Notes: generated by a model not told the origin, from the sequence alone. A DNA stretch of 64,000 nucleotides from an uncultured Bacilli bacterium (GCA_934157235.1 CAKPHH010000006.1:9861-73860), one strand, 5' to 3'. Counted from the stretch's first letter, positions 3,559-22,732 are shown. A program made the numbers and translations.

Positions 3559-3701
3559 AATCTCACCTATTATAGATTATACCATAACATTATTTGTAAA
3601 GTATGGTAAAAATATGAAAATTTTAAAAATTATGATATAATAATTAAGAATTTTTTAAGAAGAAATGAACTGTTATTTTATATGTTTGGGAGGAGTTATT
3701 T

Positions 3702-4673: not shown

Positions 4674-4727
4674 GTTCTTTTTTGTATATTTATAAATAAT
4701 AATTACATACTAATTTTAGGTGATATT

Positions 4728-5798: not shown

Positions 5799-5819
5799 TA
5801 ATGAAAGTTCTATTTTTTT
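5787..5819. terminator. bidirectional rho-independent terminator between convergent genes
   Basis: Perfect 10-bp inverted repeat GAACTTTCAT-aata-ATGAAAGTTC followed by a T-run. It overlaps the stop codons of both the 4728..5798 gene and the 5810..6022 gene. Confidence 0.6.
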
Positions 5820-6022
5820 GAATTGATTAAGCCTTGAAGAGCTTTATTAGCAGCTTCTTCTAGTTCTATAATACTATCAATATATTTAGCATAATTTTCT
5901 ACAACATCAACAAATTCAGCTAGTTGAGGAGCATCTTTTCCTTGAATTAAGTTTCTAATAATACCAGCACTTTCTCTTAACTCAGAGGCTATTTTATCAA
6001 TACCTATAGATTCATTAGTCAT
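5810..6022 (-). CDS. small helical hypothetical protein in the essC operon (possible T7SS substrate or accessory protein)
   Basis: 70-aa ORF overlapping the upstream ORF by 8 bp. Predicted helical hairpin, no signal peptide and no WXG motif. Confidence 0.4.
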   Translation of the reverse strand: MTNESIGIDKIASELRESAGIIRNLIQGKDAPQLAEFVDVVENYAKYIDSIIELEEAANKALQGLINSKK

Positions 6023-6221
6023 TGCCTAATTCCTCCATTCTTTGAGTAGTTACTTTTTTATTAGGATCAAAGAGATTAGCATTATTTATAACTATTTGTT
6101 TATATGTTTCTAAGTTGTCTAGATAATTAATATTATCTTGATCAGTCCAAACTTTTTTCATTGCTTCTAAGTAGCCATAAATTTTATTAACTGCTTGGAC
6201 ATATTGTTCATATTCAGACAT
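6015..6221 (-). CDS. small hypothetical protein in the essC operon
   Basis: 68-aa ORF lying 10 bp downstream of the YukD-like gene, in the same orientation. Confidence 0.4.
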   Translation of the reverse strand: MSEYEQYVQAVNKIYGYLEAMKKVWTDQDNINYLDNLETYKQIVINNANLFDPNKKVTTQRMEELGND

Positions 6222-6230
6222 AAGTACCTC

Positions 6231-6488
6231 CTATACAAGAATTATTCTTGATCCATTTTTTAGGTCTGTATCTTTAACTGTTTTATTAACATCATACACT
6301 TGACCTGTTTCTTTACTGTAAAAGTTTGTTTCAGGACTAATGATGTAATCATGTTCAGTTATTTCTAAAAGTCCTTCTTCGATTAGTCTTTTTATGGTGC
6401 CAATCTTTTTATTGATAGGAATGAACAAGTCATAAGACTTCTCTATTAGAGGAATATATAAACATATTAATATTTTATTTTTATTCAT
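6231..6488 (-). CDS. esaB: YukD/EsaB-like ubiquitin-fold T7SS protein
   Basis: 85-aa ORF immediately downstream of essC. Its size and position are typical of EsaB/YukD. Similarity is weak, so the call rests on context and size. Confidence 0.5.
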   Translation of the reverse strand: MNKNKILICLYIPLIEKSYDLFIPINKKIGTIKRLIEEGLLEITEHDYIISPETNFYSKETGQVYDVNKTVKDTDLKNGSRIILV

Positions 6489-6497
6489 AATTACCTC

Positions 6498-9400
6498 CTA
6501 CTCATCAGATAAGAATTTAACAACGTTGGCTTTACCTTTAGTGATAACATAACCAAAGTTTGGCTCTAACTCTGCTCTTAAAAGACGAGAATTTGTTGTT
6601 ACTTTAAATGTAAATTGATTACCAATACCATTACCTATCCAAATACCTTCTGATAAATCAATATTAGTTTTATACCAAGCTTCATAATTAAGAGACTTGA
6701 TATTATCAATTGTTTCTACAACAATAAACTTAATTGTACCTAATTTAGATGTTTCAGAGATAGCGGTTGTAAATGAAGCTTTCTTAGTAGAATCCAGTTT
6801 AGTTAATAAAGTATTTATGCCAGTTATAATAACAACAATAGGATCTTCACTATTATCCGTTTGTTTAGCAGTAATAGCATTTAAAACTTCTTCTATTCCA
6901 GTTTGACAATTTCCACTATCATAAATTGTATTTTGTGGTGGATTGTCAGATAAAATACTTAGAGCATCTAGAATTAGACATTTACTATTTTGAATTTTTA
7001 GAATCATTTTAGCTAAACCAGAAATAAATGGTTGAAGTGATGTAATATCCTCTCCTGTTATATTGTAAATAGTATTTTTTAGAGAAATTGTAGATATTTC
7101 TAGAGTTTCTTTTTCGATACCTACTGGTATTGATAAAATACCTCTTAGAGATTGGATAACATCATTTTCAGTTACTGTTTCTGGTAGAATTGGAATTTTC
7201 TTAGCCTTGTATTCACAAATTTGATTTAATTTATTACAAATTACCTTAACGTAGTCAACAATCTTTTCTTCTTTAAATGGATAAGCTGTTTGGAATTCGA
7301 AGATACCATCTAAATTTATTAGACCACGGCCAAAACCTTTTGATGGTTCTTTTTTACGAACTCCAGGTAAGACACTTGAATAGTCTGAAGGATCATTAAA
7401 TTGTAAAACAACGTTTTGGGCAAAGTTTTGACGAAGACGGTATCTAACAGTATTAGGTCCATTTGTACTTAGAATAAAGACAATACCATACTTTAGACAT
7501 TCTCTGGTTATTTGACCTAGGGCTTCTTCGTAATCTGGATACATTTCTAAGAAGCCTTCAATATTATTGATAACAACAACAATTAAAGGAATTTGTTTAC
7601 CACCATGATTAATATAGAAATCATAAGAACCATTATAGTCAACAAATACTTTCTTACGATCATCCATAATTTGATTAATCATCTTAAATAAATTAGCAAT
7701 CTTTTCATTTTCAGATGATAATAATACTTCTCCAACATGTGGAGCATTTCTAAACATTGTTAATGTTTCAGCACCAAAGTCTAGTAGATAGAAATTTACT
7801 TCACTAGAGTCATGAGTTGTTATAGTGGAATAAATGATTGTTTGTAACATTAACTCTTTTCCAGAACCAGCAGATCCAAAAATAATAGCGTTCCCGTTTG
7901 AAGACAATGGTAGGGTTAAAACGTTTTGTTTTTGGTTATCTGGATCATCATATTCACCAATAATTGGGTTAATATTATTGGTATTAATTTGATAAGAGTA
8001 TTTTTGTTTTAAATCTTCAACATATATATTATTTGGTATTCGATCTAGCCATAGTTGAGGAATGGAAACAGATTCTTGTTTAGCTTCTTCTACTATGTAT
8101 TTAATAATATTAGTGATTTCCTCACCTTTAGAGGCTACTTGAACTTCATTTTGTTTATTATCAAGACTTTTTATATTATTTCCAGTATCATCGATAAAGG
8201 TAATACTTTGATCGGTCTTTTTCTTTCTCTTTTCGGCCGGATAATACTGAGCTCCTGCCCAAGCGGCTTGTCCTTCTGCAAACAACTCGTTGTAGCCTAC
8301 TTGTAAGTAGAAACGCCCTGCATTTTTTAATGAAGCAGCATCTGGACATTTAATCATATCCATACTGTCTGATTTATCTTGAACTTTTAAACAGACACGG
8401 AATTTAGAGTTTGACCAAATTTGATCATTAACTACTCCGGCTGGTTTTTGGGTTGCTAGAATAAGATGGACACCTAAAGAACGACCGATACGAGCTGTAG
8501 AAATTAATTGTTCCATGAACTCTGGTCTTTGATCCTTTAATTCGGCAAACTCATCAGAGATAATAAATAGATGCGAAATTGGGTTATCTACTAGACCTTT
8601 ACGATAAAGGGCTTGATACTTATAAATATCAATAGTACTTTCATCCAATTTATCTCTGGCTTCATTAAACATTCTTTGACGTTTACGAAGTTCACTTTGA
8701 ATAGAAGCTAAGGAACGGTTCATTTCAACAGTATCTAGGTTGGTGATAGTTCCAGCTAGATGAGGTAATTTCATACCTGTCTCTTTATTTTGGAAAACTC
8801 CGGCTAGACCTCCACCTTTATAATCGATAAGAACGAAGGATACTTCGTATGGATGGTAGTTTAGAGCCATTGATAAAATATAAGTAATGATAAATTCAGA
8901 TTTACCAGAACCGGTCATACCAGCAATTAAACCATGTGGTCCATGAGCTTTTTCATGTAAATCTAGTTTGAATAATTCGCCGGACTTATCAACGCCAACT
9001 GCTGTTTGAAGACTTTTGGTAGGATCATTTGATTTCCATCTATTTAATATATTTAACTGTTCTACCATACCAACATTATACATTTCTAGGAAGGTTAAGC
9101 TTAATGGTAGCGTTTGGTTTGCTTTAGCAATATCGATTGGAATGTTGGCTAGTTGTTTGCAACATTCGTACATATTTAAGTTTAAGTCAAAGTCAGCATC
9201 AAATTCTTTTTGTTTATTTGAAACTAACTCATTTTCAAAAATACCAGACTTTTTATCACCAATACTAATAAATGTTTTACATTCATTTGGTAAATTTACT
9301 AATCTTGGACTGATGACAATTAAACTGAAACCAACGTTTACTTGCATATCAGAAACATCTTTTAATATTTCTAGATCACGAACTGTTTTATAATCATCCG

Positions 9401-11072
9401 TTATGATTACATAGTATGGCTTATATTTTTTATAATCAGCACTATTTAGTTCTCTAGTACCATTTACATCTTTATATTTTCTTGCTTGTAGTTCTTGTTC
9501 TAGGGCAAGAGATATTTCTTTGGCTTCATCTAGAGTATTGGCAAAATAACGGATACTGCGATCATTACTCCAACAGTGTGGACATATTTTTAAATATTCC
9601 CATTTACTAGAATTTTTTTCATTAGTCATTAGAACTATTTTCAAATCTTCATAACTATGATAAGCAATCATTTGAAGAATTAAGCCTTCAATGAATTGTT
9701 GTTTATTTTCAGCAGTACCGATAATTGCGGTAATATTTTTTTCCACAAAAGATGTGGAAATAGGAACATTTTCTAGTAATCTTGATTCAGCTCCTAGTTT
9801 ATAAACTTCTTGTAGAAGATTATCGGAATCAATAGAAAAGTGTTCTTGTGGGAAGTTTATACTACCGGCTAATTCAGTAGTACCAATTCCTAAACGTAGG
9901 TCAAGAAAGTCTGGTTGATCAATTTCTCTTTCCCATAAATTTCTTTTCTTACCAAAAATTATTTCTTTTGTTTCTTGAATTGGTAAGTAATTATCTACTA
10001 GTATTTGACGTTGAATTTTCATAGCGTTTTGAATTTCTGTTCTTTTAGAGTCAACATACTTTTTATACATAGCTTGACGAGTTTCTTCTTTTTTGCGGTT
10101 TTGCTTAGTTTGATATATTTTTGTTAAACTTGGCCATAAAATCATTGTAGATAACATTACTCCGGTTGTTATTAAGGATGGAGCAGCTGTTTTAAAATCC
10201 TTTGAACCATCGGCTAAGCCTTGTAAAGCGGTTATTCCGGTAGTTGCTGACATCATGGACATGGTAAGCATTGGACCAACAGTATATATTAGAGGTGTTT
10301 TATCTTCTTGTTGTTTACCAGGAGGTGTATCAATATTAACATTTATTGGTTCTATTTTAGTTTTAAATCTTGGAGCACGATAGAAGTAATCATCTTCTTT
10401 ATAAAATTCAATGTTTTCTTCATCAGGATTATCCATTTCTGTTTGATTTTGAATCCATGGATGATCTTCTTCAAGAACTCTTTGATCATAATTAACAATA
10501 TTACTGATTCGATTAAGGATTATAGAGTCTTTTAAAACTATTATTTTTAGACCCATGATAAAGATAATGTCTCCATACTCTAGTTGTTTAGAGGCAATAG
10601 CAACATTATTAGCATAAGTTCCATACTTACTATTTAAATCTTGAATTACCCAAATTCCTTTGTTGTATACTAATCTGGCTTGTTGTCTTGAGATTAAGGG
10701 ATAATTATAACAGATTGTTGAGGAAGGATCATTTCCAATAGTTATTTCGCAGTCTCCACGGACACGAAGACGATTTATATTAGGTTCGATTGAGGGAGAA
10801 CAATATAATATTACATATTCGTTATCGGTATTTATTTTTAAGAAGAAAAGGCTGTATTCACTTAAGATAGCTGATTCTATTTCATTTTCTCCTAACATTA
10901 TTTTTGTTTCAAAGTCACTCTTTATTTTCCAGTGACCGTCAAACTCTTCAACATTAATTAGATTTCTGGTATTTCCTAAGTAATCGTTATCCGTTATCCA
11001 ATAATTTCCGGCTATTTTAGTTGGTAGTGTGAAATTGTAAATTTTAGTTTTTTTGATAAGTCTAACTATCAC
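6498..11072 (-). CDS. essC: type VII secretion system ATPase EssC/YukB (FtsK/SpoIIIE family with N-terminal FHA domains)
   Basis: 1524-aa ORF with two FHA-like modules at the N-terminus, a TM segment (VGPMLTMSMMSATTGITAL), and multiple P-loop ATPase domains (GLIAGMTGSGKSE etc.). Confidence 0.85.
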   Translation of the reverse strand: MIVRLIKKTKIYNFTLPTKIAGNYWITDNDYLGNTRNLINVEEFDGHWKIKSDFETKIMLGENEIESAILSEYSLFFLKINTDNEYVILYCSPSIEPNINRLRVRGDCEITIGNDPSSTICYNYPLISRQQARLVYNKGIWVIQDLNSKYGTYANNVAIASKQLEYGDIIFIMGLKIIVLKDSIILNRISNIVNYDQRVLEEDHPWIQNQTEMDNPDEENIEFYKEDDYFYRAPRFKTKIEPINVNIDTPPGKQQEDKTPLIYTVGPMLTMSMMSATTGITALQGLADGSKDFKTAAPSLITTGVMLSTMILWPSLTKIYQTKQNRKKEETRQAMYKKYVDSKRTEIQNAMKIQRQILVDNYLPIQETKEIIFGKKRNLWEREIDQPDFLDLRLGIGTTELAGSINFPQEHFSIDSDNLLQEVYKLGAESRLLENVPISTSFVEKNITAIIGTAENKQQFIEGLILQMIAYHSYEDLKIVLMTNEKNSSKWEYLKICPHCWSNDRSIRYFANTLDEAKEISLALEQELQARKYKDVNGTRELNSADYKKYKPYYVIITDDYKTVRDLEILKDVSDMQVNVGFSLIVISPRLVNLPNECKTFISIGDKKSGIFENELVSNKQKEFDADFDLNLNMYECCKQLANIPIDIAKANQTLPLSLTFLEMYNVGMVEQLNILNRWKSNDPTKSLQTAVGVDKSGELFKLDLHEKAHGPHGLIAGMTGSGKSEFIITYILSMALNYHPYEVSFVLIDYKGGGLAGVFQNKETGMKLPHLAGTITNLDTVEMNRSLASIQSELRKRQRMFNEARDKLDESTIDIYKYQALYRKGLVDNPISHLFIISDEFAELKDQRPEFMEQLISTARIGRSLGVHLILATQKPAGVVNDQIWSNSKFRVCLKVQDKSDSMDMIKCPDAASLKNAGRFYLQVGYNELFAEGQAAWAGAQYYPAEKRKKKTDQSITFIDDTGNNIKSLDNKQNEVQVASKGEEITNIIKYIVEEAKQESVSIPQLWLDRIPNNIYVEDLKQKYSYQINTNNINPIIGEYDDPDNQKQNVLTLPLSSNGNAIIFGSAGSGKELMLQTIIYSTITTHDSSEVNFYLLDFGAETLTMFRNAPHVGEVLLSSENEKIANLFKMINQIMDDRKKVFVDYNGSYDFYINHGGKQIPLIVVVINNIEGFLEMYPDYEEALGQITRECLKYGIVFILSTNGPNTVRYRLRQNFAQNVVLQFNDPSDYSSVLPGVRKKEPSKGFGRGLINLDGIFEFQTAYPFKEEKIVDYVKVICNKLNQICEYKAKKIPILPETVTENDVIQSLRGILSIPVGIEKETLEISTISLKNTIYNITGEDITSLQPFISGLAKMILKIQNSKCLILDALSILSDNPPQNTIYDSGNCQTGIEEVLNAITAKQTDNSEDPIVVIITGINTLLTKLDSTKKASFTTAISETSKLGTIKFIVVETIDNIKSLNYEAWYKTNIDLSEGIWIGNGIGNQFTFKVTTNSRLLRAELEPNFGYVITKGKANVVKFLSDE

Positions 11073-11160
11073 TAGAAATCACCCTCTATTCTTTTACTCT
11101 ATGCTAATTATAGCTTTTTTTCTAGCTTTTTACAATAGATAATTAAATAATTAGTGTAGG

Positions 11161-11191
11161 AAAAAAACGTTTCTTTTTTAGAAACGTTTTT
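11161..11191 (-). terminator. rho-independent terminator of pilin-LRR paralog 1
   Basis: AAACGTTTC-ttttttta-GAAACGTTT hairpin flanked by A/T runs. The essC promoter region follows. Confidence 0.6.
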
Positions 11192-11192
11192 A

Positions 11193-13250
11193 CTATTTTG
11201 TTATAGTGATGTCGCCATACCAGTTTTCAACGACTCCTGTTTCGAAGGTTGCTTCACTTGGCCCATCAGTAATTGCTTTCCAGTCAAAGACTCTACCTGT
11301 TTTATTGACAATTTCGACTAAGTCGCCATTCATTAAAACCCAAGGATTATATTTCTGGAAGGCATTTCTTCCAATATAGGTTACAGTGGATGGAATTACA
11401 ACTTTACCAGTTAGATGACAAATCGTAAAGGCATTATCTCCTATTGTTTCAACACCTTCTGGAATGATTACAGATTTAATTTCACTATAGTGGAACGCAC
11501 TGTTTCCAATTGTTTTTATAGTTGAAGGTATTTGAACATTTTCTTTTTTAGCTCCAGAATAACCATACAAGTAAGTATTATCAACGGTTCCATCGGCTTT
11601 TCGACCATAAATGAAACCATCTGTTAGTACTCCATCGCCATTATCAACGCTTGTTAAATAACCAATTGTGAATATCGAAGTACCATCAAATTTTATTTTA
11701 GCAGGTAAAGTTAGTTTACCGGTTAGGCTAAGGAAGTTTAGAGCATTTCTGCCTAATGTTTTTAGAGTTACACCATTTTTCTCTGTAGGTACGGTGATAT
11801 TATTTCGATTTGCTCCAGAGTAACCAATTATTTTTTCATAGTTAATACCACTTTTAGTTCTTTCATAGATCCAAATTTCACCGGAGGTTACTTTATTTAC
11901 ATTAAAGGCTTGAATATCTATAGATGTTACAGATGATGGAATATGAAGTTCTTTTAAACGATTACTGTATAGGGCTGAGGAACCAATGGTTTCTAGACCA
12001 TCAGGTAGATTTATTTCACTGATACCATCATAAGCAAAGGCTAGACTTCCAAGGGTTTTCAAAGTACTTGGAAGAACAACTTTCCAGTCATAAAGAGACA
12101 TACTGGTAAAAGCACCATTTGCTATTGTAGTTAGTTTTACATTTTCTTTTTCAGCTGGAACTATGAATGTTTTATCACTAAATTCCTTTAAATCACCGAT
12201 ATAGCCGATTATAGTACTGTAGTCATATGAACTATCACTATTTCTCTTATATAAGAATGAAGAACTTGGTAAATTATTATTACAAAAAGCACAGGTTCCA
12301 ATAGTGGTGTTTGGTCCAGGAACTAAAGTTGATATATCTTCAGATATCTTATTGTATTTAAAGGCTCTTGCCCCAATCTTTACTAATTCTTTTTGTAAGT
12401 TAAGTTTGGTTATTTGATTATTTAAAAAAGCTTCCTCTCCTATTTCTTGAACATTTTTAGGAATAGTTACGGTTGTTAATTTATTGTAAGCAAAAGCTCT
12501 ATAACCGATTTTTTTAACTGTACTTGATATAACTACGCTTTCTAAGCCCATATTGGCAAAGGTGGCATTATATATTTCGATGATATCTCTATTTTCAATG
12601 CGATTTGGAATTATAACATTTGGTCCACAATTAGGATTATACCAAGTTAGTCTAGCAGTGGTATCACTTAAGTCTTGAAAACTAAAACACTTTTTAGCTT
12701 CAGTCCTACTCATTTCAGTATAAGGAGTTTTGGTTGTGTCTATATTGCCATTGGCATCATAAACAACTATTTTACTTCTTTTACCTATTGGTCGGTAGTC
12801 TACTGTTTTTCTTGTATCTTGAAAAACATCAGTTTTCTTTAGCTTAGTTTTTTCTTGTAGAGCTATTTTCCAACCGGCGATGTCAGCACCATTAAAATAG
12901 TAACTTAAGTTTACTTTATCATTGATTAAATCCATGGCTGTTACAACGTAGGCATCTCCCCAGGTAGCAAATCCACTCTTTCCTAAATTGGTACGATCAT
13001 CTACGAGATTAGCTATATGGATATAGTAAGTCGTATCTGGATCATCTATTTCAAAAGTAGAATTTAGAACTTCTTTTTCAGCTTCATTTATGAAAGTTAA
13101 GGCGCTATTGATAAAAATATCTTTTCTTGAATTTGTTATTACTAAACTGATTGATGGAATAGCAATAGCCATTAGAATACCCATGATGACAATCACCGCT
13201 AGTAACTCAATTAAAGTAAAACCTTTTTTATTAATGTTTCTCATAAGCAT
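11193..13250 (-). CDS. type IV prepilin-like N-terminus fused to BspA-type leucine-rich repeat protein (paralog 1 of 5)
   Basis: N-terminus KKGFTLIELLAVIVIMGILMAIAIPS is a class III signal with a G|FTLIE cleavage/methylation motif. It is followed by repeated IPxSVxxIGxxAF LRR_5-like units and a conserved C-terminus VNKTG..FDWKAITDGPSEATFETGVVENWYGDITITK. Confidence 0.8.
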   Translation of the reverse strand: MLMRNINKKGFTLIELLAVIVIMGILMAIAIPSISLVITNSRKDIFINSALTFINEAEKEVLNSTFEIDDPDTTYYIHIANLVDDRTNLGKSGFATWGDAYVVTAMDLINDKVNLSYYFNGADIAGWKIALQEKTKLKKTDVFQDTRKTVDYRPIGKRSKIVVYDANGNIDTTKTPYTEMSRTEAKKCFSFQDLSDTTARLTWYNPNCGPNVIIPNRIENRDIIEIYNATFANMGLESVVISSTVKKIGYRAFAYNKLTTVTIPKNVQEIGEEAFLNNQITKLNLQKELVKIGARAFKYNKISEDISTLVPGPNTTIGTCAFCNNNLPSSSFLYKRNSDSSYDYSTIIGYIGDLKEFSDKTFIVPAEKENVKLTTIANGAFTSMSLYDWKVVLPSTLKTLGSLAFAYDGISEINLPDGLETIGSSALYSNRLKELHIPSSVTSIDIQAFNVNKVTSGEIWIYERTKSGINYEKIIGYSGANRNNITVPTEKNGVTLKTLGRNALNFLSLTGKLTLPAKIKFDGTSIFTIGYLTSVDNGDGVLTDGFIYGRKADGTVDNTYLYGYSGAKKENVQIPSTIKTIGNSAFHYSEIKSVIIPEGVETIGDNAFTICHLTGKVVIPSTVTYIGRNAFQKYNPWVLMNGDLVEIVNKTGRVFDWKAITDGPSEATFETGVVENWYGDITITK

Positions 13251-13361
13251 TACTCCTATTATCTAGATTTTAACATAGATTAGTTGTTTTTTAAAGAGCT
13301 TGTTTTGTAATACTTGTCTTTACATTTTGACAAAGTAAAATGTTTCCTTTTAGAAATGTTT

Positions 13362-15422
13362 TTATTCATTAGTTACAGTAATGTCACCATACCAGTTTTC
13401 AACAACTCCTGTTTCAAAGGTTGCGGCACTTGGTCCTCCGGTGATAGCTTTCCAATCAAAGCTTTTTCCCGTTTTATTAACTATCGTTGCAAAGTCTTTA
13501 TTGTTGGTACTAGTTTTGTAAAATGACATTCTACCTATTGTTTTCATAGTTGATGGAATTGTTATATCTTTTAATTGACAAGTACAAAAGGCATATTCAC
13601 CGATTTCTTCCACTCCTTCTGGAATAATTACCGATCTTGTGTCGGTGTAATAGAAAGAAAAAGGACCAATGGTTTTGATAGTTGAAGGTATTTGAACATT
13701 TTGTGCTCCAGACCTGGCGTAACCATATAAATAGGTTTTATCAATACTACCATCCGATTTTCTACCATAAACAAAACCTTCTGTTAATACACCATCACCA
13801 TTATCAATACTTGTTAAGCGATTTAAATTAAACATGTCATTTCCTTCAAAAATTATCTTTTCTGGTAAAGTTAGGGTACCTGTCAGCGATAAAAATTTGA
13901 ATGTGGAAGCTCCTAGCGTTGTTAGTTTTACACCATTTTTCTCGCTAGGTATGATGATATTATTTCTATTGGCACCAGAATAACCTATTAATTTCTGATA
14001 ATTAATACCACTTTCTGTTCTCTCATAGATCCAAATATCCCCGGATGTAACGTAATTAACATTAAAAGCTAAGGCACTAATATGAGTTACAGATGATGGA
14101 ATATTTAATTTTTGGAGACGGTTATTATAGAAAGCGTAAGTTCCAATGTACTTTAAATTACTTGGCAAGTTAACCTCAGCAATTCCGGCGTGTTGAAAGG
14201 CGTAATCTGAAATTTTAGTTACGGTGTCTGGTATTACGACCTTCCAATTTTTGGCGGATAAACTTTGAAAAGCTGCCGTACCGATTGTTTTTAATGGAAT
14301 ATTTTCCTTCTCAGGAGGAAGTATCAAGGTTTGATTTGGAAATTCACTTAAGTCTCCAATGTAACCAATTATTGTTGAATAATCATAACTTCCATCAGAA
14401 TTTCTTTGATACATAAAGAAAGCACTATCTAATTTATTATCACAAAAAGCGCAATTGCCTATCTTTGTATTAGCCCCAGGAACTAATGATTCAATAGTAC
14501 CAGTTAATTGATTTTTTTTAAAAGCATTAGCACCAATCGTTTGAAGCGTGGTTGGGAGTGTTAGCTTGTTGATTTCGTTATTTGTAAAGGCTTGAGAATC
14601 TATTCTTGTTACACTGCTTGGAATAGTTACGGTTTTTAGTTTATTATCTTGAAAGGCTCTTGCCCCAATAGTCTTAACTGTTTCTGGAATTCTAACACTA
14701 GTTATACCCATATTTTTAAAAGTATCAGAATATATTTCGATGACAGTTCTATTTTCAATTCGATTAGGAATTATAATGTCTGTTCCACAATTAGGATTGT
14801 ACCAAGTTAGTCTTGTTGTTGTGGCATTTAGGTCTTGAAAACTATAACATTTCTTGGCTTCCGTCCTACTCATTTCAGTGTAAGGCATTTTAGAAATATC
14901 TTTATTGCCATTTTCATCATAAACGACTATTTTACTTCTTTTACCTATCGGTCTATAATCAACGGTCTTTTTAGAATCTTGAAAGACATCAGTCTTTTTT
15001 AGCTTAGTTTTTTCTTGAAGAGCTATTTTCCAACCGGCGATGTCAGCACCATTAAAATAGTAACTTAAGTTTACTTTATCATTGATTAAATCCATGGCTG
15101 TTACAACGTAGGCATCTCCCCAGGTAGCAAAGCCACTTTTCCCTAGATTGGTACGATCATCTACAAGATTTGCTATATGGATATAGTAAGTCGTATCTGG
15201 ATCATCTATTTCAAAAGTAGAATCTAGAACTTCTTTTTCCGCTTCATTTATAAAAGTTAGGACACTATTTATATAGATATCTTTTCTAGATTCAGTTATT
15301 ACTAAACTAATTGATGGAATCGCAACTGCCATTAATATTCCCATGATGACAATTACGGCTAGAAGTTCGATTAAGGTAAAACCCTTTTTACTCATTTTTC
15401 TCATATGAATTACTCCTATCAT
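13362..15422 (-). CDS. prepilin-like LRR protein, paralog 2
   Basis: Same architecture as paralog 1. The N-terminal ~190 aa are nearly identical to paralog 1 at the nucleotide level (approximately 12880-13250 vs 15040-15420). The true start is probably MSKKGFT rather than the upstream M. Confidence 0.8.
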   Translation of the reverse strand: MIGVIHMRKMSKKGFTLIELLAVIVIMGILMAVAIPSISLVITESRKDIYINSVLTFINEAEKEVLDSTFEIDDPDTTYYIHIANLVDDRTNLGKSGFATWGDAYVVTAMDLINDKVNLSYYFNGADIAGWKIALQEKTKLKKTDVFQDSKKTVDYRPIGKRSKIVVYDENGNKDISKMPYTEMSRTEAKKCYSFQDLNATTTRLTWYNPNCGTDIIIPNRIENRTVIEIYSDTFKNMGITSVRIPETVKTIGARAFQDNKLKTVTIPSSVTRIDSQAFTNNEINKLTLPTTLQTIGANAFKKNQLTGTIESLVPGANTKIGNCAFCDNKLDSAFFMYQRNSDGSYDYSTIIGYIGDLSEFPNQTLILPPEKENIPLKTIGTAAFQSLSAKNWKVVIPDTVTKISDYAFQHAGIAEVNLPSNLKYIGTYAFYNNRLQKLNIPSSVTHISALAFNVNYVTSGDIWIYERTESGINYQKLIGYSGANRNNIIIPSEKNGVKLTTLGASTFKFLSLTGTLTLPEKIIFEGNDMFNLNRLTSIDNGDGVLTEGFVYGRKSDGSIDKTYLYGYARSGAQNVQIPSTIKTIGPFSFYYTDTRSVIIPEGVEEIGEYAFCTCQLKDITIPSTMKTIGRMSFYKTSTNNKDFATIVNKTGKSFDWKAITGGPSAATFETGVVENWYGDITVTNE

Positions 15423-15521
15423 CTAGATTTTACCATGGATTGTATTTTTTTTAAAGAGCTAGTTTTGTAATACTTGTCTTTACATTTTGACAAAGTAAAA
15501 CGTTTCCTTTTAGAAACGTTT

Positions 15522-17597
15522 TTATTCATTAGTTACAGTAATGTCACCATACCAGTTTTCAACAACTCCTGTTTCAAAGGTTGCGGCACTTGGTCCTCCG
15601 GTTATCGATTGCCAATTAAAACTCTTTCCAGTTTTGTTAACTATTTTTGTTAGAGAGCCATTACGACTTACCCAAGATATTTCTTTATAGAAGGCTTTTG
15701 AACCGATTTGAGTTACATTTTTAGGTATTACGACTGTTCCTTCTAACTGGCAAAGGTCAAAGGCATTATTTTTGATAGCAGTTACACTATCTGGTATTGT
15801 TACTGATTTAATATAACTACGCGAAAAAGAATTTGGGCCAATTGTGACAATAGTATTTGGTATCATTACATTTTGAGTATTTATTCCACCATAGGCATAT
15901 AAGTATGTATTGTTGATGGTGCCATCAGAATTTCTTCCGTAGATGAAACCATCTGTTAAATTTCCATCGCCATTATCGACTTTTGTTAATCTGTTTTGTT
16001 CAAAAGTCATGGTGCCAGTATACTTTATCTTGGCTGGTAATTTTAAGGTTCCTTTTAAGGATAAATGACGAAAGGCACTTTCACCTAGAGTTGTTAGAGT
16101 TACACCATTTACTTGGGTTGGAACAGTTATATTATTTCTACTTGCTCCAGAGTAACCAATTATTGTTGAATAATCTATTCCAGATGTTGTCCTTTTATAA
16201 ATCCAGATATCTCCTGAAGTTACAGAGTTAACATTAAAGGCCATTGCTCCTATAGAGGTTACAGATGATGGAATTTGTAATTGCTTTAGTTTATTATTAT
16301 AGAAAGCTTCTTTACCAATTGTTTTGACATTATTAGTTAGGTTTACCTCACCTATTGAAGATGATGAAAAAGCACTATTTTCAATAGTCGTTACAGTATC
16401 CGGAATTATTACTTTCCAGTTTGATAAAGCCATACGTTCAAAAGCACCTGATCCAATAGTTTTTAAAGAATAAGTCTGATGGGTTTTACTATCTTCTTTG
16501 GTTGCAGGAATTTTAAATATTTTGTCTGGAAATTCTGATAAGTCACCTATATAACCAGTTACTTTAGTATAGTCATATTTTCCTGAGGCATCCCTGGCAT
16601 AGATAAATGAGGCATTAGGGATATTATTATTACAAAAAGCACAAGTTCCGATAGTTGTGGTTGGGCCTGGGACTAAGATTCCTAGTTCTTCACTTAATTT
16701 ATTATATTGAAAAGCTCTAGCACCGATCGATTGTAGTGTTTTTTCTAGACTTAGTTTAGAAATATTTTGATTTCTGAAAGCTTCGCCATCAATTGTTGTG
16801 ACACTGGCAGGAATAATTACAGTGGTTAGTTTGTTATAAGCAAAGGCTCTGTAGCCAATTGTTTTTACAGATGAAGGAATCATAATATTTGTTAGACCTT
16901 TGTTATTGAAGGCATAAGAGTATATTTCCTCAACTGTTCTTCCTTCTATTTTACTTGGTATAACAACATCTGTTCCACATTTAGTATTATAGAAAGTTAA
17001 CTTGGCAGTAGTAGCATTTTTATATTGGAAACTGAAGCATTGTTTAGCTTCTTCCTGACTCAGTTCAATTTCTGGTTCAACAGATATCTTAATACCACTT
17101 TTATCATAAACTACTACTTTACTTCTAGTACCGACTGGTCTAAAACTAACAGATTTTCGAGTATCCTGATAGACGTCTTTAGCTTTCATTTTGTCTCTTT
17201 CAACTAATGTTATTTTCCAACCTGCTCTATCGACGCCATTATAGTAGTAATTGGTATTAACCTTAGAATTAATTAAACTCATAGTAGCAACGACATATGA
17301 ATCACTCCACTCGGCAAAACCACTTTTGCCCCAGTTACCACGATTATCAACTAAGTTAGCTATATGAATATAGTATGTTGTATCAGGATCATCTATTTCA
17401 AAAGTAGAATTTAAAACTTCTTTTTCAGCTTCATTTATAAATGTTAGAGCACTATTTACATAAATGTCTTTTCTGGCATTAGTAATGACTAGTCCAATCG
17501 AAGGAATGGCAATAGCCATTAAAATACCCATGATAACTATTACGGCTAAAAGTTCAATTAAGGTAAATCCTTTTTTACTGCTAATTACATTTCTCAT
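15522..17597 (-). CDS. prepilin-like LRR protein, paralog 3
   Basis: N-terminus SSKKGFTLIELLAVIVIMGILMAIAIPS, a BspA-like LRR body, and C-terminus GGPSAATFETGVVENWYGDITVTNE. Confidence 0.8.
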   Translation of the reverse strand: MRNVISSKKGFTLIELLAVIVIMGILMAIAIPSIGLVITNARKDIYVNSALTFINEAEKEVLNSTFEIDDPDTTYYIHIANLVDNRGNWGKSGFAEWSDSYVVATMSLINSKVNTNYYYNGVDRAGWKITLVERDKMKAKDVYQDTRKSVSFRPVGTRSKVVVYDKSGIKISVEPEIELSQEEAKQCFSFQYKNATTAKLTFYNTKCGTDVVIPSKIEGRTVEEIYSYAFNNKGLTNIMIPSSVKTIGYRAFAYNKLTTVIIPASVTTIDGEAFRNQNISKLSLEKTLQSIGARAFQYNKLSEELGILVPGPTTTIGTCAFCNNNIPNASFIYARDASGKYDYTKVTGYIGDLSEFPDKIFKIPATKEDSKTHQTYSLKTIGSGAFERMALSNWKVIIPDTVTTIENSAFSSSSIGEVNLTNNVKTIGKEAFYNNKLKQLQIPSSVTSIGAMAFNVNSVTSGDIWIYKRTTSGIDYSTIIGYSGASRNNITVPTQVNGVTLTTLGESAFRHLSLKGTLKLPAKIKYTGTMTFEQNRLTKVDNGDGNLTDGFIYGRNSDGTINNTYLYAYGGINTQNVMIPNTIVTIGPNSFSRSYIKSVTIPDSVTAIKNNAFDLCQLEGTVVIPKNVTQIGSKAFYKEISWVSRNGSLTKIVNKTGKSFNWQSITGGPSAATFETGVVENWYGDITVTNE

Positions 17598-17730
17598 AAT
17601 ATGCTACTCCTCTTATTATGAGTTTATCATGATTTAAATTTTTTTGAAATAGCAATAGACAATTTTGTGATTAGTTAGATTACATTACATATAAAAACAC
17701 TTCTGCAATTAGAAGTGTTTGTTAGTTAGT

Positions 17731-19794
17731 TTAACCTTTTGTTACCGTTATATCGCCATACCAGTTTTCAATAGTACCTGTTTCAAAAGTGGCAGCACTT
17801 GGTCCTCCTGTGATTGTCTGCCAGTCAAAACTTCTTCCCGTTTTATTAACTATGGTTGTTAATTCACTATTAATGCCTGTCCAACTCATTTCTTTATGAA
17901 AGGCATTTCTTCCTATTTCCGTAACTGTTGAAGGGATTACAACAGTACCTTTTAAGTGACAAACATCAAAAGCAGTTTCTCCAATACTTGTTACGCCTTC
18001 TGGTATAGTTACTGAAGCGATTTCACTATAGAAGAATGCATTTGGACCGATTATCTTGACTGTATCAGGAACAGTGACGTTATAACGACCATTTCTACCA
18101 TAACCATATAAGTAAGTTTTATTGATACTTCCATCAGAATTTCTTCCATAGATGAAACCATCAGTTAAGATACCATCACCATTATCTACTTTAGTTAGTT
18201 TGCTTAAACTAAATACGGTACTACCGGTAAATTTAACTTTTGCTGGTAGGGTTAGTGTTCCTGTTAAATATACATAGCGAAACGCTCCATCGCCCAAGGT
18301 TTGTAAAGCTACACCATTTTTTGTAGTGGGTATTGTAAGATTATTTCTATTACCACCAGAATAACCAATTATTGTTGAATAATCTATACCAGATGTTGTT
18401 CTCTTATAAATCCAAAGTTCTCCCGATGTTACTTTATTGTTATTGAAAGCTAACATATCAATTCTAGTTACTGAGGTTGGTATTTGAAGAGTTTTTAGAT
18501 TATTAACATAGAAAGCTTGATAACCTATTGTCTTTAGATTAGTCAGTTTATCTAAATTGACAGATTTAATTCCGGCGAAAGCAAAGGCATCAGATTCAAT
18601 ACTAGTTACAGTGGTTGGTATTTCAACATCCCAGTTATCTAGTGTCATACGATTGAAGGCTCCATAGCCAATTGTTTTAAGTGCAACGCCTTCTTTTTGT
18701 GCAGGAATTACAAACTTATTGTTACTAAATTCCTTTAAATCACCAATATAGCCAGTTATTCTTGTATAATCCGTTGTACCATTGGAATTTCTTTTATATA
18801 GAAATGCAGAACTTGGAAGATTATTATTACAAAAAGCACAAGATCCAATTGCAGTGTTAGCACCTGGTACTAGGACCTCTATTGTATCTGATAATAAATT
18901 ATATTGAAAAGCTCTAGCACTTATTGTATTTAAGGATTCAGCTAAATTTATTTTAGTAAGACTATTTTTCATGAAAGCTTCTGTACCGATTGTTGTGACA
19001 CTTGAAGGAACAACTACAGTAGTTAATTTATTATAGGCAAATGCTCTACTACCAATTGTTTTTATGGTACTTGGAATTTTTACGTTTGTTAGACCTTTGT
19101 TGTTGAAAGTATAAGAATGGATTTCATCAACTGTTCTACCTTCAATTTTACTTGGTATTGTTACCTCTGTTCCACAATTAGTGTTATAGTATGTTACTTT
19201 GGCAGATGTTGCACTTTTATATTGAAAACTAAAACATTTCTTGGCCTCGCCTTCACTCATGATAAGTTCTGGTTCGACAGATGATTTTATACCATTTTTA
19301 TCATAAACGATTACTTTACTTCTACTACCGATTGGTCTAAAAGATATCTTTTTTTCAGAGTCTTGATAAATGTCATGCTTGTTTAACTTTTCTTTTTCGC
19401 GTAAAAGTATTTTCCAACCTGCTCTATCTACACCATTAAAATAGTATGTAATGTTAACTTTAGAATTAACTAAATCCATAGCGGCAACAACATAGGAATC
19501 TTTCCAAGCGGCAAAGCCACTTTTTCCCCAGTTTGTACGATCATCCACTAAATTAGCAATGTGAATATAGTATGTTGTGTCCGGATCATCTATTTCAAAA
19601 GTAGAATTTATTACTTCCTTTTCAGCCTCGCCAATAAAAGTTAAAACACTATTTATATAGATATCCTTTCTGGCCTCTGTAATGACTAGGCTAATAGATG
19701 GTATAGCAACAGCCATTAAGATACCCATGATTACGATTACTGCTAAAAGTTCAATTAGGGTAAAACCCTTTTTACTGCTAATTATTTTTTTCAT
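17731..19794 (-). CDS. prepilin-like LRR protein, paralog 4
   Basis: Same N- and C-terminal modules as the other paralogs with a divergent LRR core. Confidence 0.8.
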   Translation of the reverse strand: MKKIISSKKGFTLIELLAVIVIMGILMAVAIPSISLVITEARKDIYINSVLTFIGEAEKEVINSTFEIDDPDTTYYIHIANLVDDRTNWGKSGFAAWKDSYVVAAMDLVNSKVNITYYFNGVDRAGWKILLREKEKLNKHDIYQDSEKKISFRPIGSRSKVIVYDKNGIKSSVEPELIMSEGEAKKCFSFQYKSATSAKVTYYNTNCGTEVTIPSKIEGRTVDEIHSYTFNNKGLTNVKIPSTIKTIGSRAFAYNKLTTVVVPSSVTTIGTEAFMKNSLTKINLAESLNTISARAFQYNLLSDTIEVLVPGANTAIGSCAFCNNNLPSSAFLYKRNSNGTTDYTRITGYIGDLKEFSNNKFVIPAQKEGVALKTIGYGAFNRMTLDNWDVEIPTTVTSIESDAFAFAGIKSVNLDKLTNLKTIGYQAFYVNNLKTLQIPTSVTRIDMLAFNNNKVTSGELWIYKRTTSGIDYSTIIGYSGGNRNNLTIPTTKNGVALQTLGDGAFRYVYLTGTLTLPAKVKFTGSTVFSLSKLTKVDNGDGILTDGFIYGRNSDGSINKTYLYGYGRNGRYNVTVPDTVKIIGPNAFFYSEIASVTIPEGVTSIGETAFDVCHLKGTVVIPSTVTEIGRNAFHKEMSWTGINSELTTIVNKTGRSFDWQTITGGPSAATFETGTIENWYGDITVTKG

Positions 19795-19914
19795 AATACG
19801 CTACTCCTATTATCTAGATTTTAACATAGAATTTTATTTTTTTAAAGTGTTATTGTTGTGGAGGGTAACTTTTTGGTTTACAAAGAAAGAGACTTTCTAT
19901 AGTTAGAAGTCTCT

Positions 19915-21954
19915 TTAATTTTTGGTTATTTCGATATTTCCACTAGATGTTTTAACTGTACCTGCTTCAAAAGTGGCTTTTTCTGTTCCTCCAGTGATTA
20001 CTTTCCAATCAAAGCTTTTTCCTGTTTTATTTATAATTTTTGTTAAGTTAGGATTGGATGATGAACTTTTATAGAAAGCTTGGTTATCTATAGAAGTTAC
20101 TGTTGATGGAATTGTGATAGTACCTTTTAACTTACATGCATTGAAGGCAAATTTATTTATTTTTTGTACACCTTCAGGAATGGTTACTGATATAGTATTA
20201 CTATATTGGAAAGCTCCAGGGCCAATTATTTTTACTGTTGATGGAATAACTACATTTTCTTGATTTGTTCTAGCGTAGGCAAATAAATAATTCTTATTAA
20301 TGCTTCCGTCGGTGTTTCTGCCATAAACAAAACCATCCGTTAATGTTCCATCACCATTATCTATTTTAGGAATGTTTGCTCCTAAGAACATTGTTTCTCC
20401 TTTTAAAAGGACATTAGCTGGTATTTTTAAAGTTCCTGTTAAGCTTAAACTTCTAAATGAGGCATCAGCTATACTTTCAAGTTTTATACCATTAGTGGTA
20501 GAGGGAATTGTTATATCAGATTTGTTTGCTCCGGCATAACCAATTATTGTTTTATAGTTAATGCCATTACTGTTTCTGCCATATATCCAAATATCTCCAG
20601 AAGTAACTTCATTTAAGTTAAAAGCTAGTTGGCCTATTTTAGTAACAGAGCTTGGGATATGTAAGGTTTTAATCTTGTCTCTTTCAAAGGCATTGTTACC
20701 AATCGTTTTTAGGGTATTTGGGAATTCTACACCTGTTAGTCCTGTATAAGCAAAAGCTAATTCACCGATTGTTTCTAGACCATCTGGTAATACCAGAGTT
20801 CTTCCTGATAAATTCATACTCATGAAAGCTCTATTTGAGATATTCTTTAATGTTACACCTTTCTTGGTTCCTGGTATAGTAAATTTATCTTTAGGGATTT
20901 CGTTTGCGTCACCCATAAAACTTACTATTGTTGTATAATCCCAGCTACCATCAGTATTTCTCTTATATAAGAAAGATGCATTTGGTATTTTATTATTACA
21001 GAAAGCACATGATCCTATTACAGTTGATGACCCAGGGACAAGCGCTTCGATATCTTCAGTAATTTCATTTGATTTAAAGGCGCGCGCTCCGATTTTTTGA
21101 AGAGAAGCATCTAATTTTAACTTGTTTATTTTATTATTTACGAAGGCTTCGGTACCGATTGTCTTAACACTTTTGGGAATAGTTACAGAAGTTAGATTGT
21201 TTACCGCAAATGCTCTTTCGCCAATTGACTCTACCGTATCTGGTATTAGAACATTAACAAGTCCTTTACCTACAAATGCTGAGTTATCTATTTTTACAAC
21301 ATCCATTTCGCCGATTCTATTTGGGATAGTAACATCATTAATACAGGTTGGACTATATGCGGTAATACTTATTGTAGAAGCGGTTAGTTTTTTGTAAGTA
21401 TAACATTTCTTGGCCTCTTCTTCCTCTAATGAGAAGAAAGGAGATTTAGTTGTATCTTTTAGACCATTGACATCATAAACAATGATTTTAGTTCTATTAC
21501 CTACAGCTCTATACTCAACTTTTTTTCGGGATTGTTGGTAGATGTTACTTTTCTTCAATCTAGTTCTTTCAACTAATCTTATTTGCCAACCAGCTTGATC
21601 AACGCCATAAAAATAGTAATTATGTTCTTCTTTATTATTAATTAGATCCATAGTTGCGACTACATAAGCATCAGCCCAGGTAGCAAAACCGCTTTTACCT
21701 AAATTGGTAGGATCATCTACTAAGTTAGCTATATGAATATAATAAGTTGTATCTGGATCATCTATTTCAAAAGTAGAGTTTACAACTTCTTTTTCAGCCT
21801 CATTAATAAATGTTAAGACACTATTTAAATAAATATCTTTTCTAGCATCAGTAATTATTAATCCGATTGAAGGTATCGCAACAGCCATTAAGATACCTAT
21901 GATGACAATTACCGCTAATAACTCGATCAATGTAAATCCTTTTGCATTCTTCAT
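19915..21954 (-). CDS. prepilin-like LRR protein, paralog 5 (most divergent C-terminus)
   Basis: N-terminus MKNAKGFTLIELLAVIVIIGILMAVAIPS with an LRR body. The C-terminal module is related but diverged (GGTEKATFEAGTVKTSSGNIEITKN). Confidence 0.8.
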   Translation of the reverse strand: MKNAKGFTLIELLAVIVIIGILMAVAIPSIGLIITDARKDIYLNSVLTFINEAEKEVVNSTFEIDDPDTTYYIHIANLVDDPTNLGKSGFATWADAYVVATMDLINNKEEHNYYFYGVDQAGWQIRLVERTRLKKSNIYQQSRKKVEYRAVGNRTKIIVYDVNGLKDTTKSPFFSLEEEEAKKCYTYKKLTASTISITAYSPTCINDVTIPNRIGEMDVVKIDNSAFVGKGLVNVLIPDTVESIGERAFAVNNLTSVTIPKSVKTIGTEAFVNNKINKLKLDASLQKIGARAFKSNEITEDIEALVPGSSTVIGSCAFCNNKIPNASFLYKRNTDGSWDYTTIVSFMGDANEIPKDKFTIPGTKKGVTLKNISNRAFMSMNLSGRTLVLPDGLETIGELAFAYTGLTGVEFPNTLKTIGNNAFERDKIKTLHIPSSVTKIGQLAFNLNEVTSGDIWIYGRNSNGINYKTIIGYAGANKSDITIPSTTNGIKLESIADASFRSLSLTGTLKIPANVLLKGETMFLGANIPKIDNGDGTLTDGFVYGRNTDGSINKNYLFAYARTNQENVVIPSTVKIIGPGAFQYSNTISVTIPEGVQKINKFAFNACKLKGTITIPSTVTSIDNQAFYKSSSSNPNLTKIINKTGKSFDWKVITGGTEKATFEAGTVKTSSGNIEITKN

Positions 21955-22027: not shown

Positions 22028-22732
22028 TTAAAACTCATAGTTTTCTAATGGAGATTGCTTTTCAATTTCTTTTAAGTAGTCCTTTATGCCTTCGGTAATA
22101 GAATAAGCCAACTTTTCTTGATAATCTTTCGATTGGAGAAGTCCACGTTCATAAGGATTTGATAGAAAGCCTGTTTCTACTAGGACTCCTGGCGTTGTTG
22201 TGTTTTTATACATGTAGAGATTTGTTTTTTTGATGTTGCGTTTACTCTTCTGATTGGTTTTAAATTGTTCCATTATTTTCTCAGCTAATATTTTATTATT
22301 AGGATTGATTGTATTATATAAAACTTCTGCTCCTCTATGTTTAGAATTTTCATACCAATTAATGTGAATAGAAATGTATAAGTCACTTTTATTTTCTTTA
22401 ATTTTTAGAAGGCGTCGATATAAATCTCCCCTTTTCTTTTTTGAATCGTATATGGAAGATAAGTCGATATCGGAGTCTCTAATCATATAGACTATAGCGC
22501 CATTTTTTATTAGTTCCTCTTCTAATTTTTTGGATATTTCTAGATTTAAATCTTTTTCCTTTATAGTTCCATACATAGTTCCTGGATCTCTACCGCCATG
22601 GCCAGGATCAACAGTTACAATAACTCCAAGTAAGGGTAATCGTTGAGCTGAAATAAGATCAATAGATAAGAGAAGAATTGTTAGAGTAATAATGATTATT
22701 GCTTTAAGTTTATATTTTAACATAAGTTTCAC
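22028..22732 (-). CDS. N-acetylmuramoyl-L-alanine amidase (Amidase_3 family) with signal/TM anchor
   Basis: 234-aa ORF with a VDPGHGGRDPG motif and an N-terminal hydrophobic segment. Confidence 0.8.
   Translation of the reverse strand: MKLMLKYKLKAIIIITLTILLLSIDLISAQRLPLLGVIVTVDPGHGGRDPGTMYGTIKEKDLNLEISKKLEEELIKNGAIVYMIRDSDIDLSSIYDSKKKRGDLYRRLLKIKENKSDLYISIHINWYENSKHRGAEVLYNTINPNNKILAEKIMEQFKTNQKSKRNIKKTNLYMYKNTTTPGVLVETGFLSNPYERGLLQSKDYQEKLAYSITEGIKDYLKEIEKQSPLENYEF

Follow-up and report, generated by a model that had tools for sequence, protein, structure and literature searches.

The question raised by the locus described here is whether a tandem family of predicted surface-protein genes evolves through the exchange of DNA among its own members and between strains, and whether such exchange represents antigenic variation. 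The locus is located within a 64,000-nucleotide (nt) stretch of DNA from an uncultured Bacilli bacterium (GCA_934157235.1, CAKPHH010000006.1:9861-73860), hereafter referred to as the window, and consists of five head-to-tail paralogs, g1 to g5, encoded on the minus strand at positions 11193 to 21954 and specifying products of 679 to 691 amino acids (aa), in which a type IV pilin-like N terminus precedes leucine-rich repeats (LRRs). In a preliminary description of the window, the array was considered a mosaic of conserved ends and variable middles, shaped by gene conversion and carrying the signature of antigenic or specificity variation. Based on the evidence presented below, patchy ectopic gene conversion, coupled with unequal crossover in an old tandem family, is very probably responsible for the observed mosaic.

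The array is flanked by a gene encoding an N-acetylmuramoyl-L-alanine amidase (22028-22732) on one side and by essC, encoding a type VII secretion ATPase, on the other. Its first gene, g5 (19915-21954; 679 aa), is followed by g4 (17731-19794; 687 aa), g3 (15522-17597; 691 aa), the rare paralog g2 (13362-15404; 680 aa), and g1 (11193-13244; 683 aa), all on the minus strand and with a G+C content of 31 to 33%. Pfam matches were obtained for g3 and g4, as well as for g1 (N_methyl, 1.9e-08; LRR_5, 1.3e-51). The longest open reading frame (ORF) of g1 begins at 13250, although the ATG at 13244, which is preceded by AGGAG, is the more probable start; similarly, the real start of g2 is at 15404, as confirmed by an exact database match, and not at the longest-ORF start (15422). 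The longest-ORF start ATGs of both genes overlap the AGGAG ribosome-binding site.

Comparison of the window with itself at an offset of 2160 nt revealed a diagonal that was not uniformly diverged, in line with the dot-plot check suggested in the preliminary description, and on which two blocks of elevated identity were apparent. Identity, calculated per 50 nt, was about 80 to 88% across 12548-12848, rose to 96 to 100% across 12848-13098, returned to 80 to 84% across 13098-13298, rose again to 96 to 98% across 13298-13448, and was 50 to 60% further out. The first block, designated tract A, occupies positions 12815-13068 in g1 (minus strand; g1 nt 177-430) and 14975-15228 in g2 (minus strand; located by diagonal and repeat search), and includes the longest exact run between the two genes, namely, 113 nt at 12859-12971, repeated at 15019-15131, within which lies the example of a shared stretch cited in the preliminary description. 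The repeat search produced a concordant result, with g1 and g2 being 90 to 93% identical where the other paralogs are 62 to 80% identical. Tract A corresponds approximately to residues 59 to 143, and thus to the head of the pilin module rather than to the LRR region. The statement that the first ~370 nt of both genes are almost base-for-base identical is overstated, since 12880-13250 and 15040-15420 are 87.1% identical (332/381), while the first ~140 nt of the two coding sequences are 80.9% identical, which is no higher than for other paralog pairs. The latter are equally alike across these ~140 nt owing to protein-level conservation of the signal peptide and alpha1 helix.

The second block, tract B, encompasses the last ~87 nt of one gene, its terminator, and the distal two-thirds of the following spacer. 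Copy 1 (13298-13448, minus strand) includes the 3' end of g2 and the distal spacer upstream of g1, while copy 2 (15458-15608, minus strand) includes the 3' end of g3 and the distal spacer upstream of g2; the copies are 96 to 98% identical and thus form direct repeats on both sides of g2. Over their last 60 nt, g2 and g3 are 100% identical, and the phylogeny accordingly differs between segments, the 5' part grouping g1 with g2 and the last 60 nt equating g2 with g3 (values for the last 60 nt are used here, since an end-anchored, ungapped comparison of 3' ends was partly out of register for g1-type genes). The intergenic regions 13251-13361 and 15423-15521, formerly described as near-identical, deserve that description only on their terminator side (~70 nt, ~96% identity); as whole spacers they are 81% identical because their promoter-proximal ~45 nt differ.

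In order to evaluate these tracts statistically, 1165 polymorphic sites across the five paralogs were subjected to a GENECONV-like permutation on a codon alignment, for which pairwise p-values were used, the global ones being uninformative with the g1-g2 pair dominating the null maxima. This gene-conversion test, as proposed in the preliminary description, returned p<=0.0005 for a g1-g2 fragment (codon-alignment columns 92-680) and for a g2-g3 fragment at the 3' end, as well as a weaker g3-g4 fragment (p=0.02). The proportion of synonymous differences is 0.5 to 0.8 for all ten pairs across the whole gene outside the tracts, falling to 0.26 to 0.28 for g1-g2 in columns 150-450 (0.57 in the first 150 nt) and to 0.31 for g2-g3 in the last 130 nt. 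Synonymous sites are thus saturated except in the tracts, and the paralogs are therefore old; the gene ends are conserved as protein, with recent DNA ancestry being common to the tracts only.

Comparison with orthologs provided a third view of the same segment. The comparison set comprised the window and the same locus in five other assemblies (L002, L003, L004, L005, and L087), which were found via close homologues. Relative to its alleles in L002 and L005, the window g1 shows 98 to 99% identity, which falls to 87 to 92% in nt ~150-750. At 23 sites within nt 141-400, g1 has the base of g2 and not that of the two orthologs, the reverse being true of 2 sites, while the corresponding counts across nt 1001-2052 are 14 and 14. 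The departing segment (12655-13068, minus strand; nt 177-590) differs by 11 to 12% from three other g1 alleles, in contrast to 1 to 2% in its flanks, and within nt 177-430 nearly every difference from the other g1 alleles represents the g2 state. Six derived states are exclusive to g1, its close allele in L087 (L087_d), and g2; furthermore, no site in the tract is private to the window g1, which carries the g2 state wherever it is unlike L087_d. L087_d has g2 states at nt 141 and 145, which the window g1 does not, and the resulting pattern suggests that more than one event, or patchy repair, may lie behind tract A. The tract test, the synonymous profile, and the ortholog comparison consequently all agree on non-reciprocal recombination between paralogs, as had been claimed.

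The comparison set also revealed differences in copy number and chimeric gene junctions. In the compared assemblies the array is always located between the amidase gene and essC, with the order g5-g4-g1 (three copies) in L002, g5-g4-g3-g1 (four copies) in L005, g5-g4-g3-g2-g1 (five copies) in the window, and g5-g4-g3-g1-g0 (five copies) in L087, where g0 (L087_e) represents a sixth paralog type. The partial array of L004 ends with g1 followed by a copy designated g0-star, and the more distant L003 harbors at least three copies. The L087 junction between g3 and g1 consists of the left part of the window g3-g2 junction (tract B copy 2) joined to the right part of the window g2-g1 junction (copy 1), and g2 therefore lies between direct repeats, extending from tract B into the g1-type 5' module, that would add or remove it on recombining. 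At the opposite end of the array, the body of the window g1 corresponds to L087_d until ~70 nt before the stop codon, from where it matches the 3' end of g0 through the spacer to essC (chimeric 3' end, 11193-11262, minus strand). The window g1 thus arose as a chimera, through a crossover between g1 and g0 that removed g0.

Exchange within genes was similarly evident between strains. L004_b is 97 to 99% g1-type in its 5' 900 nt and 3' end, while its core is 64 to 83% identical to the g1 type, 80 to 89% to the L003_c type, and 91 to 97% to the L087_e type; it thereby combines g1-type ends with a foreign LRR core, which bears out a mosaic in which the ends are conserved and the middles vary. Between L002 and L005, the g4 alleles are 95 to 100% identical, yet their 3' ends are of the g1 type in L002 and of the g2/g3 type in L005. 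Paralogs have thus exchanged 3' ends, and the swapped core of L004_b corresponds to what the isolate comparison suggested in the preliminary description was intended to detect, namely, shuffled cores. Relative to the window, the g3 allele is 92 to 100% identical in L087 and 81 to 95% identical in L005, and g5 is 99.3 to 99.5% identical to its counterparts in L002 and L005. Among gut-metagenome proteins, the family is represented by 4689 matches, mostly of ~680 aa and containing both N_methyl and LRR_5, and its clusters contain 89 (g1), 119 (g4), 101 (g5), 18 (g3), and 1 (g2) sequences, sizes which agree with a presence/absence polymorphism. For the LRR core of g2, no relative with more than 59% aa identity was found among 5.8 billion proteins searched.

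At a larger scale, a divergent haplotype block (8672-19344, minus strand) extends from ~nt 450 of g4 to ~nt 2100-2400 of essC. This block is 4 to 9% diverged from L002 and L005, whose flanks are 99 to 100% identical to those of the window, and 97 to 100% identical to L087, whose flanks differ. The helix-turn-helix (HTH) gene, orf181, the amidase gene, g5, the small ORFs after essC, and SpoIID are 99 to 100% identical between the window and L002/L005, compared with 91 to 92% for g3 and g4, 95% for g1, and about 93% for the first 2400 nt of essC. The first 2.1 to 2.4 kb of essC is ~7% diverged from L002/L005, mostly at synonymous positions, and the rest of the gene <1%; crossovers were placed near nt 450 of g4 (about 19344) and at nt 2100-2400 of essC (about 8700-9000). 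Because the L002/L005 and L087 patterns are opposite, the window genome has an L002-like backbone carrying an L087-like array block.

On the strength of these comparisons, the existence and recent origin of the tracts may be regarded as demonstrated at the sequence level, as may the differences in copy number and the chimeric junctions. As to mechanism, we propose that neighboring genes misaligned by one 2160-nt unit would undergo short, patchy, non-reciprocal homologous recombination (ectopic gene conversion), presumably of the RecA type. One of the two tracts, ~250 nt long, is located in the part encoding the pilin head and continues for ~160 nt in a weaker and patchy form, while the other, of ~150 nt, comprises the 3' end and terminator along with the distal spacer. 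The gain and loss of whole genes would then be due to unequal crossover between the repeated ends, as suggested by the presence of three to five copies, the repeat-flanked g2, and the g0 end on g1, while allelic recombination would allow strains to exchange either the whole block or single LRR cores. The predicted net effect is concerted evolution of the pilin module and gene ends, with distinct LRR modules being maintained by purifying selection.

The direction and timing of the exchange at tract A are less straightforward. A g2-type sequence copied into g1 is the probable donor, since 22 of the 28 tract states match those of other paralogs and so would not have been acquired by point mutation in a g1 allele. 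A conversion of g1 by g2 following the split from L002/L005 was initially considered; this scenario was weakened once L087 was found to carry the tract and to lack g2. Several observations weigh against the recombination account as proposed here or limit its reach. The g1 allele L087_d, which is 97 to 100% identical to the window g1, carries tract A in a strain without g2; the exchange is therefore older than the divergence between the lineages of the window and L087, with either a subsequent loss of g2 from L087 or a transfer in the opposite direction, from g1 to g2. A g2 ortholog was sought in order to fix the direction of tract A, and none was found (best match, 59%). All sequences are short-read metagenome assemblies, in which repeats are the hardest regions to assemble; a promoter scan of this AT-rich DNA was no richer in matches than shuffled sequence, returning consensus matches only; and neither type IV pilus machinery nor a prepilin peptidase is encoded within the 64-kb window.

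The reliance on short-read contigs, which carry k141 MEGAHIT or SPAdes names, and the error-prone nature of tandem paralogs in such assemblies raise the question of whether the g2-like patch in g1 is a chimeric join between paralogs or coexisting strains. This is very unlikely, as the exact g1 and g2 proteins are each present on three metagenome or metagenome-assembled genome (MAG) contigs with identical neighbors, the independent strain contig L087 has the tract in its g1 allele, and the copy-number differences are consistent over several samples; in addition, the longest run (113 nt) is shorter than the final k-mer (141), and an internal patch would require two switches in the assembly graph. 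If g1 and g2 had instead arisen through a recent tandem duplication of the whole unit, after which the LRR core diverged rapidly and the 5' part remained under purifying selection, their position as mutual closest paralogs across the 5' 700 nt and their common upstream spacer cassette would be explained. Such a history is highly improbable given that synonymous sites are saturated (0.5 to 0.8) outside the tract, including in the first 150 nt, that the g2 LRR core is no nearer to g1 than to other paralogs and has no relative above 59%, and that g1 departs from its orthologs exactly where it equals g2. It is scarcely tenable, moreover, that tract A is conserved as functional DNA or RNA, for example as an internal regulatory element, without recombination: although it includes a region that is 75 to 80% conserved in all five paralogs, the g1 alleles L002_c, L005_d, and L004_b are ~11% off in the tract and 98 to 99% identical in its flanks, and g3, g4, and g5 are only 62 to 80% identical within it.

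Whether the recombination described above serves antigenic variation is a separate matter. The array resembles a programmed system of antigenic or phase variation, such as pilE/pilS or the Mycoplasma vlhA/MgPa type, in which one expressed gene is diversified from donors, insofar as it comprises tandem surface-protein genes with conserved ends and variable middles, recombines frequently between strains, and resides in a lineage labeled Mycoplasmatota/Tenericutes. All five copies are, however, full-length, each with a start codon, signal peptide, ribosome-binding site, promoter-like site, and terminator (degenerate in g2), and no silent, truncated, or promoterless cassettes are present among them. 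Both conversion tracts are located in conserved parts outside the LRR region, namely, the pilin head for tract A and the 3' end with the terminator for tract B; the g1/g2 tract thus homogenizes the carrier (pilin) module and not the presumed ligand-binding LRR module. The ratio of nonsynonymous to synonymous substitution rates (dN/dS) between alleles is 0.06 to 0.12 within each paralog, in the pilin and LRR parts alike, demonstrating that the alleles are under strong purifying selection, and positive or diversifying selection was looked for between alleles and not found. Alleles are also stable, with one g1-type protein sequence occurring on 112 contigs, and no G-quadruplex (G4) motif (G3+N1-7 x4) is present on either strand of the window. 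A programmed system is, therefore, very improbable, and the earlier interpretation of the mosaic as a signature of antigenic or specificity variation is not upheld.

The proteins which this array encodes are modular type IV pilin-like proteins carrying BspA-type LRR modules. In each, a class III signal peptide and hydrophobic alpha1 helix are predicted to lead into a small pilin head, which is followed by a BspA-type LRR solenoid of ~450 aa. The leaders (MRNINKKG, MRKMSKKG, MRNVISSKKG, MKKIISSKKG, and MKNAKG) are basic, Gly-ended, and 6 to 10 residues in length, and are followed by FTLIELLAVIVIMGIL in all five proteins; the features of a class III signal peptide (Gly end, F/M at +1, Glu at +5, and ~20 hydrophobic residues) were present in every case. 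Pfam N_methyl scored above its cut-off in 5/5 proteins, TIGR02532 scored 31.8 against a cut-off of 16.3, and, among 39 relatives, E13 (Glu +5) is invariant and G8/F9 are >=90% conserved. LRR_5 (PF13306) was identified in three stretches per protein (E values, 1.3e-51 to 2.6e-62), and each protein accordingly combines N_methyl (IPR012902) with LRR_5, the combination by which a modular pilin was recognized here; a database check confirmed that IPR026906 denotes the BspA-type LRR region. NCBIfam adhesin HupY/LrrG was also matched, with a score below the cut-off, and a C-terminal LPXTG motif was not found in g1 to g5.

An AlphaFold2 model of g2, built from an alignment of its relatives (predicted local distance difference test score [pLDDT], 90.4), contains an alpha1 helix at residues 11 to 60, the strands of a small beta-sheet at 71 to 131, and thereafter the LRR solenoid, and the model thus places a pilin fold, that is, a long alpha1 helix on an antiparallel sheet, ahead of the LRR region. 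The best PDB matches obtained with Foldseek were the BspA-like LRR cell-surface proteins 4gt6, 4fs7, and 4h09, together with PcpA and TpLRR; these matches are dominated by the LRR part, and the N terminus matches the alpha1N segment of solved pilins. From their sequence, the chances appear evenly balanced that the proteins are adhesins displayed on a filament, or anchored in the manner of type IV filament subunits. In a distant Erysipelotrichia MAG, L048, a T2SSE ATPase gene adjoins small pilin genes, which shows only that the wider group has the capacity for such machinery and is uninformative for the window genome. A related Bacilli MAG from Hadza gut, L027, contains tandem modular pilins composed of N_methyl and DUF6273 (457 and 452 aa) at 9995-12914, located beside polysaccharide synthesis genes; it is likewise uninformative as to pilus machinery in the window genome. 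Several MAGs harbor multiple loci in which one pilin N terminus is found on differing C-terminal modules. The tandem arrangement of modular pilins therefore appears to be a general trait of the lineage.

Several characterized systems resemble the array in one or other of these respects. As in the modular pilins surveyed by Raynaud et al. (2021; PMC8179133), an N_methyl motif is joined to an extra domain that is not specific to pilus biology, and the IPR012902-IPR026906 architecture was listed in that survey among the 15 commonest architectures of modular pilins as a domain without clear function; the LRR architecture is thus uncharacterized there, and neither tandem arrays nor recombination are described. 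The same study covers PilB and PilC of Streptococcus sanguinis, which carry a vWA and a lectin module, respectively, and have been shown to be present in filaments and to bind ligands of the host (Raynaud et al. 2021, PMC8179133). In contrast to PilB and PilC, which are single genes in a pilus operon, five tandem copies, each terminated separately, are found here next to essC, with no pilus machinery in the 64 kb of the window. The closest analogue in evolutionary behavior is the Listeria inl cluster (inlGC2DE/inlGHE), likewise composed of tandem LRR surface paralogs whose copy number varies by recombination between neighbors; inlH, in which the inlC2 5' end is joined to the inlD 3' end (PMC3977354), is a chimera of the same kind as the window g1. 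This analogy implies no homology beyond the general LRR fold: Listeria internalins possess a Sec signal, an N-terminal cap, 22-residue LRRs, and an LPXTG, GW, or WxL anchor, whereas the proteins described here possess a prepilin signal and LRR_5 repeats and lack LPXTG. Neisseria pilE/pilS similarly involves pilin genes with a conserved 5' part and non-reciprocal transfer of the RecA type. However, pilS donors are silent and 5'-truncated, while every copy in the window array is complete, and Neisseria conversion affects the variable C-terminal part and requires a G4, while the window tract is located in a conserved module without a G4. Finally, LRR_5 repeats are shared with Tannerella BspA, pneumococcal PcpA, and Treponema TpLRR, which are among the best structural matches; such BspA-type proteins carry Sec or lipoprotein signals, choline-binding domains, or other anchors, in place of which a type IV pilin module serves as the anchor in g1 to g5.

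The spacers within the array carry terminator- and promoter-like elements that are partly shared between genes. Four of the five genes end with a stable hairpin followed by a T run, g2 being the exception. As previously stated, the hairpin is perfect in one copy of the cassette and contains two central mismatches in the other: that after g3 (15497-15522, minus strand) is intact (free energy [dG], -11.6 kcal/mol; z, -3.9), while that after g2 (13337-13362, minus strand) is degenerate (dG, -2.5 kcal/mol; z, 0.05). An intact hairpin of the same family is located after g1 (11163-11191, minus strand; dG, -12.0; z, -5.6). In the g2 terminator both arms have changed from ACGT to ACAT on the RNA strand, the CG being retained in all other strains and junctions with the cassette. 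This corresponds to a C-to-T change (plus strand) at a CpG in both arms, which produces two A-C mismatches on the mRNA and G-T wobbles on the opposite strand, and could reflect deamination at a methylated site or relaxed selection. Because the g2 hairpin is broken, transcription probably reads through from g2 into g1. The conserved promoter/terminator cassettes of the preliminary description do not extend to all five genes, the g4 and g5 terminators and the g3 promoter region being different.

Promoter-like sites were identified upstream of g1 (13267-13295, minus strand; TTTAAA, 17 nt, and TAAAAT with TG) and, of the same type, upstream of g2 (15427-15455, minus strand), each being a consensus match only. 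For g1, g2, and g4, a TG-extended -10 site precedes the ribosome-binding site by 20 to 25 nt, at a position conserved across strains; these sites are plausible promoters as judged by consensus. The proposal of independent promoters thus retains these three sites in its favor, while the lack of enrichment over shuffled sequence and the broken g2 terminator, which argues for read-through, count against it. An imperfect inverted repeat, TTGTCAAAATGTAAAGACAA (minus strand), is present at 13308-13333 and 15468-15493, just upstream of the -35 region; it is conserved upstream of g1-type genes in every strain and is also found upstream of g2 in the window, representing a candidate binding site for a regulator. 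T8 runs (plus strand; A8 on the coding strand) occur inside g2 (14512-14519) and in the promoter-like -35 region of g2 (15445-15452), the matching upstream run being of six A residues at g1 and seven at g4; no variation in T8-run length was seen between strains for any one gene.

The gene directly downstream of the array in every strain of the species, essC (6498-11072, minus strand), encodes a 1524-aa FHA-FtsK protein matching TIGR03928 (NCBIfam) with 1026.8 bits against a cut-off of 778.4. It stands alone, with no EssA, EssB, or EsaA gene visible nearby, and three small ORFs of 85, 68, and 70 aa without a family match are located 3' of it (5800-6497). In the more distant species represented by L007 and L009, two tandem copies of the pilin-LRR genes are present which do not adjoin essC; the linkage is therefore specific to the species group of the window. 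Immediately upstream of the amidase gene, L005 carries a mobile element (1-7767) with Mob_Pre, HTH genes, and a 533-aa large serine recombinase, and the L005 amidase is shortened (200 aa versus 231). Beyond the array, the region 25386-28326 encodes two further predicted surface proteins, one of 563 aa with type I dockerin repeats and Listeria-Bacteroides (Flg_new) repeats and one of 419 aa with four Flg_new repeats; dockerins are unexpected for a lineage labeled Mycoplasmatota. Adjoining ribosomal protein genes, a 2084-aa ORF (36054-42308) has a weak transglutaminase-core match and a proline-rich (cornifin-like) stretch. A close g1 allele carries the NCBI name [quoted passage not shown]

A broader, and rather doubtful, reading is that the array represents a cassette-like set of adhesins at the population level, borne on a pilus or pilin anchor, in which at least six interchangeable LRR modules (g0 to g5) would be shuffled among strains. 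Under such a scheme the pilin module, the boundary between this module and the LRR region at nt 700-900, and the last ~70 to 130 nt plus terminator would act as fixed joints, gene conversion would keep the pilin modules uniform and hence all compatible with one assembly machinery, and a functional connection to type VII secretion could lie behind the constant linkage to a lone essC, the 5' 2.1 to 2.4 kb of which moves with the block.

The array is a clear but ordinary recombining surface-protein family, in which the mechanism of recombination is textbook and the value of the observations is descriptive rather than conceptual. It nonetheless provides a cross-strain example of how an abundant uncultured gut lineage, whose MAGs are labeled either Mycoplasmatota or Bacilli, varies its surface repertoire, with LRR modules being gained, lost, and swapped whole while the pilin anchor stays uniform. 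The N_methyl and LRR_5 family to which these proteins belong has thousands of ~680-aa relatives in metagenomes, and the presence or absence of g0, g2, and g3 among strains supplies natural variants for tying individual LRR modules to hosts or ligands.

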